Assembly: GCA_963714015.1 (NCBI GenBank)
Contig: OY970223.1
Span: forward strand, 128,001-192,000
Source of the DNA: Vulcanimicrobiota bacterium
Lineage (GTDB): Bacteria; Vulcanimicrobiota; Vulcanimicrobiia; Vulcanimicrobiales; Vulcanimicrobiaceae
Direction: 5' to 3'
Length of the DNA: 64,000 bases
The first letter of the stretch is position 1. Each line of letters starts with the position of its first letter. Shown here piece after piece: positions 29,801-38,800 of the stretch. Made by a program: the position numbers.

Positions 29801-32800
29801 AGCTGGCAGCCGCACGCGTGAAAGCGCTTTCGCTCGAACATCTCGATCAAAGATTGGACGAGCGCTTCCGCGTGCTGACGTTCGGGAGCCGCACGGCGCT
29901 CCCGCGTCATCAAACGATGCGCGCGCTCCTCGATTGGAGCCATGACTTGCTGAAAACCGCGGAGCAAACGCTGTTTCGCCGCCTGGCGGTGTTCGCGAAC
30001 GGCTGGACGCTGCAGCAGGCCTGCGCCGTGTGCGGATCGGGCGTACCCGAATGGGAGATCGTCGACGCGCTGTCTTCGCTTGTGGACAAGTCGCTCGTCG
30101 TTGCGTCGGTCGGCGCCTCGAGCGAACGCTTTAAAATGTACGAAACGACACGCGAATATGCGTTGGAGCAGTTGGGCGCAAGCGGGGAGAGGGCGGCGCT
30201 CGAACTGGCGCACGCCCACTACTTCACGCTTTTCGCAGAAGAAAAGGACTCGGCGTGGGAGGGCACGCCGACGGAATCTTGGTTTGATGAAATGCTGCCT
30301 GAGGAAGACAACTTCCGCGCGGCTCTGAATTGGGCGCTGGAACGGGCAAATGACCATGAAACCGGCATCCGGCTCGTGTCGTATCTGCCGCGTTTTTGGT
30401 GGACGGGCGCTCGCCAAGCGGAAGGCATGCGGTGGTACGAAGCGGCGTTTAGGACGGTCGATGTGTGTCCGACGCCGGCGTCGACGATTGCGCGTCTGCG
30501 GTACGGCCTTGGAGTGCTGAATTCGACGACGCTGATGCGTCGTGACGCGCGCGAAAATGCCGAGCGCGCCGTCGAACTCTCACGCGACGGCGAGGATAGA
30601 CGGCTGTTTGGCTGGAGCCTACTGGTGCTCGGCGTTGCGTGCGCGCTGATGGACGATCCGCGCGCAGGACGAGGCCATTGCGCAGAAGGCCTAAAGATTG
30701 CAGAGGCCTTACAGGCGACACGCTTGCACGCGTGGCTGCAATGGGCGCAAGCGCTCAACGATGCCGCTGCCGGTCTCTTCGCTGACGCACGCGCGGAACT
30801 TGCGCCGCAGGCGGAAATTGCAAAGCAACTCGGCGACGATCTGCTGCTCGGCCTCGTGTTTATTTACGCCGGCATCGTCGAACTAGGCGCCGGCGACGGG
30901 GACGCTTCGCTGAAATACACGCAAGACGCGCTCGAATTATACCGGCGCAAAGGCGACCGCATCGGCGTGGCGCTTGCGTGGTCCAACATCGCTCCCTGCT
31001 GCTTATCGCTGCAGCGCATGGAGGATGTCCGCGACGCAGGCCGCCAAGCGTTGCTGTACGCGCGGGACGCGTACAACTCCAGACTCATCGTCATTGCGAT
31101 AGAATATCTTGCCGCGGCCGACGCCGATGCGAGTTCTGTGCGCGCCGCCCGTTTGATCGGCTACGCGGACGCATGGTACGGCCGTTCCGGAACGCCGCGG
31201 GATCTCTCCGAACGTGCAGCACAACAATGGACCATGGCGAAGTTGGAAAGCACCCTTCCGCAAGATCTACTCGAGCGTGAAAAGGCTTGCGGAGCAAACC
31301 TTTCCGATGCACAGGCAATGGAGCTGGCACTATCCGAGCGCGATTCGGCAGCGACGGTCATATCTCGATAGCCACGCGTCACTTCGCCTCGGAAGGGAAC
31401 TCGCGTTCGGCCCCGCCCAAGGCGCCAAAGTCCCGAACGACATGAACATCTATCCGGACGCCGGTCACGGCTTCGCCGCTGCCAAAAGAGCTTCGCTTCG
31501 GAGGACTCTTGGCGGCGCGCTATAGCGTTCTTACGAGCGCATTTGGCCTGATCTATCGCGGCGACGACGAGCAGCATGGCGTCACCGTCGGTTCTGCCGT
31601 GTCGGGGAAATACCGCGAAACCCTCCTCGGTCGTTCCAAAGCCGTGTTGCGGGAGCGAGTGTGTGCGCCATGCATCGAAGGAAAGGCGTGCGCCGTACAT
31701 GAAGCGCGGATAGATGCTTCCCATCGCATTGCTGTACGCGCTTGTCATGCCCGTGCCTTCGCCGTCGCCGACACCGCTGTGCGACCGCCGGCTCGGCGTT
31801 TATCAGCCGCAAAGCGACGATCCGGTACCGATCTCGACGCGGCCGCTTATCGATCCCGATTCTATTCGTGTCGTCGTGCACGTTTGGGTGGACGAGACCG
31901 GCAAATTGTCACGGGCTCAGATTACGAACTCCAGCGGCAATCAGCGGCTCGATCGGGCTGCGATTGAAGCGGCGAAGAACAGCCGTTATGCTCCGAGGAT
32001 CTTAGACTGCTCTGCCGTCCCTTCCGATGGGTACTTCGTCGTCACTTTTCAGTCTTAGCGCCGCTCTCTACGATCCGAGGAAAGTTAACGTTCTAAGCGG
32101 CTCCGCTCAACTCGATGACGCGCGGCCGCAAGTGCAGCCGCTGCAAGACGCCTTCGTAGTCTTCGGGTTTCACATCGCTCCACTTCTTGTCCAGAAGCGC
32201 CAGCAGTGCCGCTTCGACGACGTTCGTTCCGAACGAGCGCCCTTGAAACTCGGGCGTCGTCGTAATGAGCAACTTGACGCCGCGTTTGCGCAATTCTTCG
32301 ACGTCGCTCTGCGTCACGGTGTTCGTAAGAACGATCTTGCCTTGCAGATCGTCCGGCATGAACTGCCGCATGAAGTGAAAGTCGCCCGCGATGATGTCGG
32401 CATCGTGATAGTACTGCGGATACTTGGGCTCCGGCGGTTTGTCTTGCTTCTTCCCGGTCGGATAAAAGAATTGAAACGGCAGCTTGCACGCGTCGGGGAG
32501 ATACTTCTCGGCCATCTCCTCGAACTCGTGTAGACCTTTGACCGGTTTGTCGAGATCGAGCGCAAAAATGAAGTCGCCGAAGAGTACGTCGGCGCCGGCG
32601 TCGACGAGCGCCTGGGCCATGCCGAAGCGGTCGAGCGCGCTCACCATCAGCACTTTCTTGCCTTTGAGATCGATGTGAAGGTCTTCTTGCATGAAGCGCA
32701 CTGCTTCGCGTTCGAGCGTGTTCTTCAGGCCGCTGCCGTCGACCACGGGCGTTACTTTCGCGGCTTCCAGCAAGCGCACTCCGTCGCGTAATGCATAGCG

Positions 32801-35800: not shown

Positions 35801-38800
35801 GAACATCGTCTTGCCGGAGAGCGACATCAACTCCATCTGCTCTTTGACCGCTGCGATCACTTTCGGGTGACTGTGACCGAGCGTAAAGACGCCGTAGCCG
35901 CCGGCGAAGTCCAAGTACGCTTTGCCGTTATGATCCCAAATCGTGCAGCCTTTCGCGCGAACTTCGACCGGGCTTCCGGAGACTTTCATGACTCGCGCGA
36001 GCGGCGGATTCACGTAATTCTTGTAGTTCTCGTACGTCTCGTCGTACAAGTCTTGACCGGCACTTACCGCGAAAGCGATACTCTCGGTCATGCGGCTGCC
36101 GCGCGTTCGAGCGACGCGATGGTTTCCTCGACGACCGCGACGACGTCGGCCGCGCGATCCAAGTGCATAATGCGCTCGCGAAGAACGGCGGCGTTTGGAA
36201 TTCCTTTCAAATAGAGCGCCAGATGCTTGCGCATTTGCGGAACCGCGCGCGGCTCGCCCAATTCGTCGACCATCGTCCTATAGTGCACGTGAATCGCGTA
36301 GCGCAGCCGATCGGCAGCGCTCGGCACGGGCTGTTCGGGGCGGCCTTCCATCAGGTCCCGGATTTGCGAGATCAGCCACGGATTCCCCAGCGTCGCGCGC
36401 CCCAGCATGATCGCGTCGACGCCGCTCTCCCGCATTCGCCGCATTGCGCTGAACGGTTCGTCCAGATCGCCGTTGCCGATAACGGGAATGTCGATCGCCT
36501 GCTTGAGCGCTTTGATGTGCTCCCAATCCGCGCTTCCTTTATAGAACTGTTTTGCGGTACGGGCGTGGAGCGTCACCGCCTGGATCCCCACGCGCTGCGC
36601 GCGGCGCGCGACTTCGACGTACACGATCTCCGCCTCGCTCCAGCCTAAGCGCATTTTCATGGTGACCGGACAATCCACTGCGCGCACCACGGCATCCATG
36701 ATCCGCTCGCAGCGCTCGACGTCCCGCAGGCAAGCCGAGCCGCCGTTGATCTTGGTGACCTTCGGTGAGGGGCAGCCGAAATTGATGTCCACGATGTCGG
36801 CGCCGCACTCCCGCACGACCTTCGCCGCCTTGGCCATCACCTCGGGATCGTCACCCCAAAGCTGCGTGCTGACCGGCTTCTCCAGTCCGTGCTGATCGAT
36901 CATCTCCATCGTGCGCTTTGCGCTCGAGGCGTACTGGAGCGCATTTGCGGAGACGAACTCGGTCACGGTGAGCCCCAAACCGAACGGCTTATAGAGCGCC
37001 CGCATCGTGCGGTTGGTCACGCCGGACATCGGCGCCAAAATCAGCGGCGGCCAAATCCGGTGCGGGCCAATCGTTAAGGGAGCGACCGGACGAACGGTCT
37101 GAATTGGGTCGGCGCAAGCCATACGGAGCGAGTATAGCACGGGTTGTCATCGCCGAGCAGCAGCGCTTCGACGTAAGGCACGAAGCCTCGGGCCGCCCCA
37201 GGTGATCCGGGAGTCCGTCTTCATGACGACAGGGATTGGTAGTACCGGCGTAAGCCCAGCAGACTGAGGTGCGGATTGACTTCATAAACGATGTCGCTGT
37301 TGCGCGCAACGACGTCGGCCATGCCGCCGGTCGCGATCACGCGGGCGTCGGCGCCGAGCTCTTCGCGGAAACGGCGCACCAAGCTCTCCGTCTGGCCGAC
37401 GAAACCGTAGACGATGCCCGATTGCAACGAAGATACCGTATCGGTGCCGAGCGCGCGCTTCGGAGCCTCCAGCGCAATTTGCGGCAACTTTGCGGTGCGC
37501 TCGACGAGTGCTTCGATCGAAGTGTTGATTCCCGGGGCGATCGCTACGCCGACGTATTCGCCCTGCGCGGAGATCGCCATGAAGACCGTCGCCGTTCCGT
37601 AACTGATCACGATTAAAGGCGCGCCATAGCGCTCGCGCGCACCGATGGCGCATGCGACCAAATCGGCGCCTACTTCACCGGGCCGCTCGGTGCGGATCGC
37701 CATGAGGTTCTGCCTGTGCGCTTTGAACAATTGCGGCGCACAACCGAAATAGCGCGCCGAAGCTTGCTCGAGCACGTTGTCGAGTTGCGGGACCACGCTG
37801 GCAATCACGACCTCTTCGACGTCCGAATGCTTCAGATTTGCGGTCGCGAGGAGTTGCGAGAAGAACACGCCGTACTCGTCGGCAGTGCGGCGCGAATCCG
37901 TCGTGACGCGCCAAAATTGCAAGAGCTCGCCGCCGCCCGGCTCGAAGCAGCCGAGCTTGGTTTCGGTGTTGCCGACGTCAATGACGAGAAGCACGTAATT
38001 CCTCGATGCAGTCGAGAAGACGCGCAGCAAGCACGCTCTTTGAAGCCGATCCAAGCTCGCGGCGCCCCTCGCGTCCCCACAATACCGTCAGCTCGTTCGT
38101 CTGCGCGCCGAAGCCGCGGTTCCCCGAAACGTCGTTCACGGCGATCGCGTCGAGATTCTTACGCGCAAGCTTCTCGCGAGCATTGGACTCGTGGTTCTGC
38201 GTCTCGGCGGCAAATCCGACGACGAAACTCCGTCCTTTGTTTTTCGCGATCTCCGCCAGCACGTCGGGATTTCGAACCATCCGGACGTTTTGATCCTCGC
38301 CGGTCTTCTTGACCTTCTGTTCTTCGCGACGTTCGGGACGCCAGTCCGAAACTGCCGCCGTAGCGACGATCAGATCGGCGCCGCGCGCGTGCTCGAGAGC
38401 CGCCTGCAGCATTTGCTCGGCGTTCTCAACACGCACGGTCCGCGCACCGGCCGGCGGATCCAAATGGGTCGGGCCCAAGATCAGCGTGACATCGGCGCCG
38501 CGCAGGGCTGCTTCCCGCGCCAAGGCGATTCCCGTTTCGCCCGTCGCCGCATTCCCGACGAACCGCACCGGATCGAACGCTTCGCGCGTCGGACCGGCGG
38601 TGATTGCGACGCGCAGTCCCGCTAATGATTGCGATCGCGCGAGCGCGGCTTCCAGCGCGTCAATCAGCGCTTCCTCCGATGCCAGGCGTCCTACTCCATG
38701 CTCGCGTTCGGCCAAGAACCCGCGCTCCGGCTCGACGAACTCGCACCCCCGCTCGCGCAGCGCACGCAGGTTCTCTTGCGTTGCGGGATTGCGAAACATC

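Follow-up and report, generated by a model that had tools for sequence, protein, structure and literature searches.

In the genome of a Vulcanimicrobiota bacterium we found four genes that, on balance, we take to belong to a housekeeping pathway of two modules by which a long-chain primary amine is made for use in a membrane lipid. The conversion of an acyl thioester through an aldehyde to an amine is very probable by analogy with known enzymes; that the chain is long and destined for a lipid is probable. The sequence studied, here called the window, is a 64,000-nt stretch (contig OY970223.1, positions 128,001-192,000, forward strand, assembly GCA_963714015.1). The first-pass annotation had placed a four-gene group at 32093..36091, and four tightly packed minus-strand ORFs were found there: a transaminase, a START protein and an AAR-like reductase, their families matched by profiles, and g00160. 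These and the accompanying features are:

g00164, 34814..36091, minus strand: class III PLP omega-transaminase, 425 aa (PF00202, E 8e-100)
g00163, 34375..34810, minus strand: START/SRPBCC (Coq10/RatA-like) hydrophobic-ligand-binding protein, about 144 aa (PF03364, E 1.2e-14)
g00162, 33212..34378, minus strand: AAR/PigE-N-type acyl-thioester reductase, 388 aa (NCBIfam PigE E 1.2e-58, AAR E 4.3e-23)
104-bp dispersed repeat, 33017..33250, no strand: two copies (33017-33120 and 33148-33250) between g00162 and g00160
g00160, 32093..33007, minus strand: two-domain protein, 304 aa, with an AAR/amino-acid-dehydrogenase-like fold and without the Cys
dusB, type III pantothenate kinase coaX and coaBC, 36088..39177, minus strand: upstream core genes, overlapping, same strand (context)

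The second repeat copy overlaps the last codons of g00162. The repeat gave 33 blastn matches across the genome, also occurs in two other loci among those compared, and stands outside the pathway. A scan for promoters and terminators found 2 and 12 sites, respectively; shuffled sequences yielded 1.8 and 9.9, and neither figure exceeds chance.

The catalytic Cys annotated for g00162 within ALACMSE was borne out: Cys303 aligns with the Cys position of the PigE and AAR chains and is invariant in an alignment of 39 homologues. The TTGN motif and the GxxGxxG nucleotide loop (GATGSIG) are also kept, and in PDB the PigE N-terminal reductase matches at E 7.6e-36. Scores are far below the NCBIfam cut-offs (AAR TIGR04058, 82 bits vs 449.7; PigE NF053554, 199 vs 850). 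The g00162 model (pLDDT 91) matches AAR at Z 34.2 (rmsd 2.9) and the amidation domain TAD at Z 32.9 (rmsd 4.1), with the next row at Z 14.9; as modeled, the protein would be as close to TAD as to AAR, which counts against our main reading. Among 14 control genomes the AAR model was said to match only in Synechococcus, Thermus and Deinococcus; we count four, Methanocaldococcus also, and the model is silent in E. coli, B. subtilis, Caulobacter, Bacteroides, Thermotoga, Corynebacterium and Lactococcus.

g00164 belongs by profile, PDB and alignment to the PigE/PatA branch of class III PLP transaminases. Its best NCBIfam matches are PatA (E 1.5e-130) and PigE (E 4.6e-127), both below cut-off; in PDB it is nearest putrescine aminotransferase PatA (1e-106) and the PigE transaminase domain (1.1e-91), and nearer these than ArgD (3e-75). 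The PLP lysine position, K265, is invariant in an alignment of 12 linked homologues. At the HGK position the alignment places K in g00164 and Arg in ArgD, where the Arg is carboxylate-binding.

With PatA as the best match, a short substrate is possible. The same chemistry might serve a short or polar acyl thioester, aldehyde and amine (polyamine-like, a cofactor or a cell-wall block), possibly in the catabolic direction, with g00160 and a nucleotidyltransferase activating the resulting small molecule on its way into a cofactor or wall polymer. We consider this unlikely. The genes do sit among CoA, folate and biotin genes, but this is a general origin-proximal core region, and the characterized AAR-transaminase pairs that we found in the literature all act on C8-C14 or longer chains. 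That START and transaminase genes are neighbors in two phyla also argues for a long chain; the START gene lies behind the transaminase in nine of the 20 top-ranked Bacillota loci. So does a Bacillota gene (genome G245) that joins PlsY (PF02660, E 5.9e-21) and a reductase with the Cys in one chain; together with the START gene it leads us to favor a long-chain substrate. The present genome (G000) has a single PlsY and no PlsY fusion; this weighs against our main reading, and with one PlsY only we reject the idea of a second as the amide-maker in this organism.

The START gene had been given a start at 34767; three-frame translation moves it to 34810 and reveals a frame split by one extra base near 34751. 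Relatives of g00163 are mostly 144-149 aa. Since one contig of sequencing run X1 (depth 2.7) is without the extra base, the frameshift is probably an assembly error; runs X2 and X3 covered little of the stretch.

The group is widely conserved, as had been claimed. g00160 is present in 120 of 121 genomes of this soil phylum (one of them, G116, unpublished), mostly in single copy, and the reductase lies directly upstream in 29/29 loci of its own family. Of 20 loci picked across 14 other families, 19 keep the full gene order; the remaining one is cut by a contig end. A coaX-dusB-(g00160)-greA-lysS neighborhood is common to this locus and Bacillota. We agree on these grounds (near-universality in the phylum, fixed order, core-gene surroundings) with the annotation of the genes as housekeeping. 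Both catalytic halves do match PigE, and searches of plasmids returned 146 records for g00162, all distant reductase-transaminase fusions at <60% identity, mostly from Ralstonia; g00160 had no plasmid match. Such matches would suit a secondary-metabolite module (prodiginine, tambjamine or alkane type), which we hold, together with a chance gathering of unrelated genes, to be very improbable: besides the conservation just described, the scores are far below the PigE and AAR cut-offs, and ADO (PF11266) was found neither in the operon nor in the genome (89.6% complete). No tam or pig genes were found among the annotated neighbors (dusB, coaX, coaBC, an FHA protein and a TonB C-terminal protein).

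We examined co-occurrence in 301 sampled Bacillota genomes, 216 of which hold g00160; the counts are inflated by kinship, use thresholds of our choosing and have one control gene (SelA). g00160 and the reductase are together in 178, g00160 alone in 38, the reductase alone in 1, and neither is found in 84. Reductase and transaminase are both present in 164, the reductase without the transaminase in 15, the converse in 6, and neither in 116. Reductase and transaminase genes are neighbors in each of the two Alkaliphilus genomes tested. Fusions in TamH order, transaminase before reductase, occur in Lutispora, in a Symbiobacteriaceae genome and in a Clostridiales bin; in two of 80 named loci (L073, L102) such a fusion lies directly behind g00160. 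Fusions are of three types: TamH-type, g00160-reductase and PlsY-reductase. The g00160 domain is present in 120/120 long reductase homologues among the matches listed. The proposal of a split PigE/TamH chemistry agrees with this co-occurrence, adjacency and fusion, and we regard the thioester-to-aldehyde-to-amine logic as well supported because of the g00160-reductase co-occurrence (178/179), the conserved order, and the TamH-type and other fusions.

The four genes had also been described as one core unit. They do form a conserved module, but not an indivisible one: 37 of the 216 g00160-bearing Bacillota are without a recognizable reductase or transaminase at the chosen thresholds, and seven of these, searched again at E 0.001, gave weak matches only, one a Cys-less remnant. 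In such genomes the module containing g00160 must take another substrate or do another job.

g00160 carries the database label quinate 5-dehydrogenase, and we concur that this is a misnomer. At E<0.01 neither Pfam nor NCBIfam assigns it to a family, and there is no Pfam, NCBIfam or PDB sequence match to shikimate/quinate dehydrogenases (PF01488 included); its likeness to them is a fold match only (Z 8-9.6). The model (pLDDT 94) is closest to AAR (Z 13.9, rmsd 4.6), followed by TAD (12.2), glutamate dehydrogenase (10.7) and shikimate dehydrogenase (9.6). The claimed AAR/TAD likeness therefore stands for the fold, but not for a conserved Cys or profile homology to g00162. No Cys is conserved among 80 homologues, 79 of which have Asn262 at the catalytic-Cys place, and this rejects a TAD-like amidase using a Cys thioester. 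Profile comparison with g00162 gave a probability of 0.25%, rejecting a paralogue at the sequence level; that g00160 is no copy of the reductase is new here. The conserved polar residues are S6, S8, R14, R31, D90, K95, E99, R127, D145, D209, R257 and N262. These polar and charged positions would suit a small anionic ligand, and with the fold shared with glutamate and shikimate dehydrogenases they speak for the small-substrate alternative. Complex prediction for g00162 with g00160 scored 0.09 (mark 0.32), which counts neither for nor against pairing. The g00160 sequence cluster is commonest in Deinococcota. One AOS-type aminotransferase is fused to a g00160 domain (P0201).

The tightest partner of g00160, far tighter than the reductase or transaminase, is a nucleotidyltransferase-like family, a finding new here; Thermus thermophilus HB8 TTHA0179 (PDB 2dpw) matches it at E 5.7e-59. 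In the 301 Bacillota both families occur in 214 genomes, g00160 alone in two, the TTHA0179 family alone in three and neither in 82, as against 166 both, 50 and 39 alone and 46 neither for g00160 and SelA. The copy in the present genome (G000:C1:1329745-1330485) is unlinked to the operon. In Anaerolineales-type loci with room, a TTHA0179-family gene lies behind g00160 in 28/28, close kin and not independent, and is mostly followed by a PAP2 phosphatase. The family also matches MobA/IspD/CofC-like proteins; as cofactor enzymes these again suit a small substrate, while the PAP2 neighbor weighs against one. Of the papers listed under the TTHA0179 locus tag or PDB 2dpw, none was relevant.

The chief phospholipids in Thermus, Meiothermus and Deinococcus are alkylamine phosphoglycolipids, which have been known since 1985. 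The AAR model finds matches in Thermus and Deinococcus, and TTHA0179 is from Thermus. Named g00160 homologues include some from Thermoanaerobacter, Thermoanaerobacterium and Caloramator, genera that produce N-glyceroyl alkylamine lipids; Moorella, also a producer, is absent among the 120 matches listed. The Thermus enzymes for the third chain and head group had not been identified as of 2022 (PMC9636437), and we found no described pathway or genes for these lipids in the literature searched, mostly outside subscription journals. The candidacy put forward for their biosynthesis is plausible insofar as parts of the set occur in producers, and the link is one of co-distribution. Against it, the genes (216/301 Bacillota) are far more widespread than reports of the lipids.

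Under our preferred reading, module 1, in the window, would begin with g00162, whose Cys303 takes over the acyl group of an acyl-ACP or acyl-CoA thioester; its reduction by the enzyme with NAD(P)H would then yield a fatty aldehyde, which the START protein may shield or pass on and the PLP transaminase would convert to an alkylamine. Module 2 would comprise g00160 and the unlinked TTHA0179-family protein, with the PAP2 phosphatase where adjacent; it may activate a small phosphorylated acid, most simply phosphoglycerate, and join it to the amine or lipid, giving an N-glyceroyl alkylamine head group. We infer the reductase and transaminase chemistry from PigE, TamH and AAR; it is co-occurrence that suggests the chain length, the roles of the START protein and module 2, and the identity of the lipid. 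N-glyceroyl alkylamine as the specific product is plausible and correlational, at slightly less than even chances. Only tentatively do we propose the whole scheme, in which the amine comes from the reductase, START protein and transaminase, and the amide-linked glycerate head group from the g00160 and TTHA0179 families, as the missing pathway to these lipids.

Long-chain chemistry could also lead elsewhere, to a different amide lipid, a fatty alcohol, a 1,2-diol lipid or an envelope anchor, with the overlap with N-glyceroyl alkylamine producers due to shared ancestry. This seems a shade less likely even than a small substrate. Long-chain diols replace acylglycerol in Thermus and Meiothermus lipids (PMC3035268), and polar lipids, glycolipids and lipids seen by TLC in the only cultured member of the phylum, Vulcanimicrobium alpinus, were unidentified, with no phosphoglycolipid named (PMC9758169). 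Among the 15 of 179 reductase-positive Bacillota without a transaminase at the chosen threshold is G245, which has a zinc alcohol dehydrogenase gene just upstream of its PlsY-reductase gene, and the fused forms of Chloroflexota carry a worn g00160 domain. Yet several lineages have the transaminase fused to the reductase or next to it, and it accompanies the reductase in 164/179, pointing to an amine; besides, our literature searches turned up no housekeeping fatty-amine products for these groups other than the alkylamine lipids.

If the proposed pathway is right, Vulcanimicrobiota, most deep-branching Bacillota, Deinococcota and many Chloroflexota would have possessed it since early times, and a three-tailed lipid class would be far commoner than lipid surveys show, with the lipid predicted in many unstudied anaerobes and soil bacteria. 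PigE/TamH chemistry would then be a core-membrane pathway, and two large unannotated families would gain a function. The result is a short gene list with a candidate mechanism for each step.

Several known systems resemble this one. TamH of tambjamine YP1 (Pseudoalteromonas tunicata) turns C12 acyl-ACP into a fatty amine (PMC9594044). It likewise joins a class III omega-transaminase to an AAR-like thioester reductase with a catalytic Cys, and TamH-order fusions adjoin g00160 homologues, but TamH is a single chain in a secondary-metabolite cluster, fed by TamA, whereas here split core genes are accompanied by a START protein and g00160. PigE of prodigiosin (NF053554, PDB 4ppm) matches g00162 in its N-terminal reductase and g00164 in its transaminase; it is one chain rather than two genes (199 + 426 bits here vs a cut-off of 850) and its substrate is a 3-acetyloctanoyl thioester, on the way to a pyrrole pigment (PMC8341465). 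Cyanobacterial AAR (TIGR04058, PDB 6jzq) shares fold (Z 34.2), Cys and TTGN motif with g00162, which reaches 82 bits vs 449.7; its partner is ADO, here a transaminase. TabE/TabA/TabQ/TabJ of tambjamine BE-18591 form a characterized pathway, likewise split, that leads from acyl-ACP via an aldehyde to a fatty amine (bioRxiv 10.1101/2025.08.11.669332), but TabE is of aldehyde-dehydrogenase type without AAR signatures, and the route has a dedicated ACP and thioesterase and serves secondary metabolism. TAD of carmabin (PDB 9e4s), proposed to form amides (bioRxiv 10.1101/2024.10.28.620694), has an AAR-like fold and is the second-best match of both g00162 (Z 32.9) and g00160 (Z 12.2); its Cys is invariant and it is carried on NRPS modules, while g00160 has Asn262 at that place. 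TTHA0179, a hypothetical protein of T. thermophilus HB8 in the same family as the partner of g00160, has already been crystallized and its structure solved, and comes from a genetically tractable producer.

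The operon proposed in the first-pass annotation is real, conserved and housekeeping. Its features in the window are:

32093-36091, minus strand, the four-gene set (transaminase, START protein, AAR-like reductase, g00160; AAR, acyl-ACP reductase)
34814-36091, minus strand, class III transaminase (g00164)
33212-34378, minus strand, AAR-like reductase (g00162)
32093-33007, minus strand, g00160

We found g00160, mostly as a single match, in 120 of 121 genomes of the phylum (the unpublished G116 included), and the reductase lies directly upstream of it in 29/29 loci of its own family. 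From other families (65 genomes) 20 loci were taken, representing 14 families; the fixed order claimed earlier, transaminase-START-reductase-g00160, is kept in 19, and the remaining one ends at a contig edge. When the best 80 of 589 loci from a GTDB genome scan for g00160 were examined, 50 had a reductase match nearby, most of the Bacillota among them had the arrangement coaX-dusB-(HTH)-g00160-(reductase)-greA-lysS, and one Actinomycetota bin (L074) had all four genes together. In roughly 40 of the 80 named loci (e.g., L085:9426-9983) the gene directly before g00160 encodes a conserved HTH protein of 170-210 aa with an uncharacterised C-terminal domain, possibly a pathway regulator; tblastn gave no match to it in the genome under study. 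In Vulcanimicrobiota relatives and Desulfofundulus (L079, L083, L084, L090, L095, L109, L110, L077) the gene after g00160 often encodes a protein of the amino-acid-permease family; none stands at that position here.

The transaminase gene start overlaps dusB by 4 bases, 3 bases separate its stop from the START gene start, and the START gene stop overlaps the start of the reductase gene. A single surplus base near 34751 interrupts the START frame, which runs from 34810; we take it as an assembly error because relatives are unbroken (mostly 144-149 aa) and one contig of sequencing run X1 (depth 2.7) lacks the base. The panC region (39174-40266) and a methionine-gamma-lyase-like frame (41100-42548) also appear shifted; since all three frames look so, the one-contig assembly probably contains many indel errors. 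The 204-base gap between reductase and g00160 is filled by two copies (33017-33120 and 33148-33250) of a 104-bp dispersed repeat, REP- or MITE-like, with 33 matches genome-wide. This repeat has hairpins, often forms tandem arrays with a period of about 110-130 bp, supplies the last codons of g00162 and is rare at the loci of relatives. Elsewhere in the window, three more class III aminotransferase genes fall within 6 kb at about 18300-23700 (contig 146334-151696), upstream of an aldehyde dehydrogenase, probably as an amine catabolism cluster.

The reductase matches the PigE (E 1.2e-58) and AAR (E 4.3e-23) profiles, both under the cut-off, and its PDB sequence matches are PigE and AAR chains only. 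Its predicted model (pLDDT 91) is nearest AAR (Z 34.2) and the terminal amidation domain TAD (Z 32.9), the next row scoring 14.9. The reductase retains the TTGN motif, the glycine loop and Cys303, and this Cys is invariant in 39/39 aligned homologues, which were chosen as intact; worn copies without the Cys exist at other loci. Such remnants stand behind g00160 in several Bacillota (L064, L070, L082, L050, L071, L198), possibly retained as scaffolds, and some of these genomes also encode a complete transaminase-reductase fusion at another place. The genome under study yielded no ADO. The transaminase is nearest to putrescine aminotransferase and the PigE domain, with ArgD well behind. In ArgD an Arg binds the substrate carboxylate; alignment places HGK at that position in g00164, a replacement that would fit an aldehyde without carboxylate and does not tell the chain length.

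g00160, with 938 representatives at 50% clustering, matched no sequence family in Pfam, NCBIfam or the PDB. Its named close homologues are from Candidatus Baltobacteraceae, which places the genome in Vulcanimicrobiota (Eremiobacterota). Its model (pLDDT 94) matches AAR (Z 13.9, rmsd 4.6), TAD (12.2), glutamate dehydrogenase (10.7) and shikimate dehydrogenase (9.6), and Foldseek gave comparable middling matches. The database label 'quinate 5-dehydrogenase', already suspected to be a misnomer, finds no support in the family searches or fold comparisons made, shikimate dehydrogenase appearing only as a fold match. Profile comparison detected no homology between g00160 and g00162. The conserved residues of g00160 are polar or charged; none is Cys, and Asn262 occupies the Cys place. 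In a single case (P0201, 762 aa) a g00160 domain is joined to an aminotransferase, which from its motif we take to be of the alpha-oxoamine-synthase type, serine palmitoyltransferase-like.

A fifth gene accompanies g00160. A metagenome scan gave 38 loci, 33 with a g00160 frame; in 28/28 with downstream room the next gene encodes a MobA-like NTP-transferase, and in most of them a PAP2 phosphatase gene comes after it, the named loci being Anaerolineales or Chloroflexota and close kin of each other. The solved member of this transferase family is Thermus thermophilus TTHA0179 (PDB 2dpw, E 5.7e-59). The genome under study has two copies, outside the window on its contig C1:

C1:1329745-1330485, minus strand, TTHA0179-family gene, behind ispE
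C1:2295596-2296321, plus strand, second copy

The family occurs in 120/121 genomes of the phylum. Its distribution was compared with those of the operon genes in Bacillota (thresholds: g00160 E<=1e-10, reductase E<=1e-40, transaminase E<=1e-125, ArgD-like paralogues scoring about 1e-110), where g00160 was found in 216 genomes, the transferase in 217, the reductase in 179 and the transaminase in 170.

Co-occurrence in 301 evenly drawn Bacillota genomes, all counts inflated by kinship (both/first only/second only/neither)
g00160 and TTHA0179-family transferase: 214/2/3/82
g00160 and SelA (control): 166/50/39/46
g00160 and reductase: 178/38/1/84
g00160 and transaminase: 164/52/6/79
Reductase and transaminase: 164/15/6/116

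g00160 and the transferase thus occur together in 214 of 219 positive genomes, and the three transferase-only genomes have no g00160 even at E 0.001. The contrast with SelA, which is patchy and of like frequency, is large, though a single control is thin. Because 37 g00160-positive genomes have neither reductase nor transaminase at these thresholds (seven of them, re-searched, gave only weak matches), g00160 and the transferase constitute a separate module, which the amine module nearly always requires. A reductase or transaminase was found in Alkaliphilus, Halonatronum and Desulforadius; Caldicoprobacter oshimai has g00160 and the TTHA0179 family, with a worn reductase and a best transaminase match of only E 4e-110.

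Fusions join the amine genes. Transaminase-reductase fusions in TamH order stand behind g00160 in two loci (L073, L102) and elsewhere in a Lutispora genome; the two genes are adjacent in 2/2 Alkaliphilus genomes, and START follows the transaminase in 9/20 loci drawn from the higher-ranked of the 170 transaminase-positive Bacillota. Long reductase homologues, mostly named Chloroflexota, carry a g00160 domain in 120/120 of the matches listed, in front in 119. Since many of these lack S6, S8, R14, R127 and N262, their sequences suggest a structural role for the fused domain beside a catalytic stand-alone copy. In the Bacillota genome G245 a PlsY-like domain is fused to a Cys-bearing AAR-like reductase (L225:4220-5986, minus strand), which links the reductase with the metabolism of membrane lipids and parallels the PlsY fusion that the first-pass annotation claimed for Deinococcota. 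Just upstream of the G245 fusion lies a gene for a zinc alcohol dehydrogenase. G245 has no transaminase at E<=1e-125 and so may make fatty alcohols.

Among control genomes the AAR model matches Synechococcus, Thermus and Deinococcus, as had been noted, and also Methanocaldococcus, so it is not confined to those three; it matches 0/7 other control bacteria. In the atlas, g00160 clusters occur most often in Deinococcota, Vulcanimicrobiota and Bacillota, and reductase clusters most often in Chloroflexota, Bacillota and Armatimonadota. Among the genera with a named g00160 homologue are Thermoanaerobacter, Thermoanaerobacterium, Caldanaerobacter, Caloramator and Fervidicola; Bale et al. in 2025 reportedly named Thermoanaerobacter, Thermoanaerobacterium and Caloramator as producers of the N-glyceroyl alkylamine lipids. 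Moorella thermoacetica is a listed producer (excerpt of PMC13274423), and the g00160 matches listed include none from it. Against the lipid link count the genes' distribution, far wider than that of the reported lipids, and the lipids of V. alpinus, which are unidentified, none being named as a phosphoglycolipid in the available part of PMC9758169.

From the parts, residues, folds, fusions and co-occurrence observed here a pathway can be proposed. By the example of TamH, PigE and AAR, an acyl group would pass from a thioester to Cys303 of g00162 and be reduced there to the aldehyde, which g00164 would transaminate to the amine; TamH so converts C12 acyl-ACP (excerpt of PMC9594044), and PigE logic is outlined in part of PMC8341465. 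Judging by context, the acyl chain would be long and the START protein a putative aldehyde carrier. In the lipid, glycerate carries phosphatidyl at O-2 and a sugar at O-3, and is bound to the amine through an amide (excerpts of PMC3398001 and PMC3035268). The lipid's glyceroyl link may, again by context, be made by the g00160-transferase module. The activity types needed would be a nucleotidyltransferase-fold enzyme on phosphoglycerate, a phosphatase, and an enzyme that binds a nucleotide and has a polar pocket; assignment among them is a guess. CofC acts on phosphoglycerate in one organism, and the TTHA0179-family gene has a weak CofC match (E 3e-5). We consider it somewhat more likely than not that the product is a long-chain amine for a lipid; its identification as N-glyceroyl alkylamine is tentative, at slightly below an even chance.

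The lipid enzymes were unidentified as of 2022 (available part of PMC9636437), and two reviews, in the sections available, mention the lipids without genes. No paper on these genes was found in a literature search covering few subscription journals. The operon makes a 40-year-old question directly testable in Thermus. The two partner families, g00160 and the TTHA0179 family, are undescribed; the TamH/PigE-type enzyme logic is already known. The Streptomyces split acyl-to-amine version is non-homologous (excerpt of bioRxiv 10.1101/2025.08.11.669332), and TAD likewise belongs to the known enzyme logic (excerpt of bioRxiv 10.1101/2024.10.28.620694). TamH and PigE share their enzyme logic with this operon, which is a member of neither.
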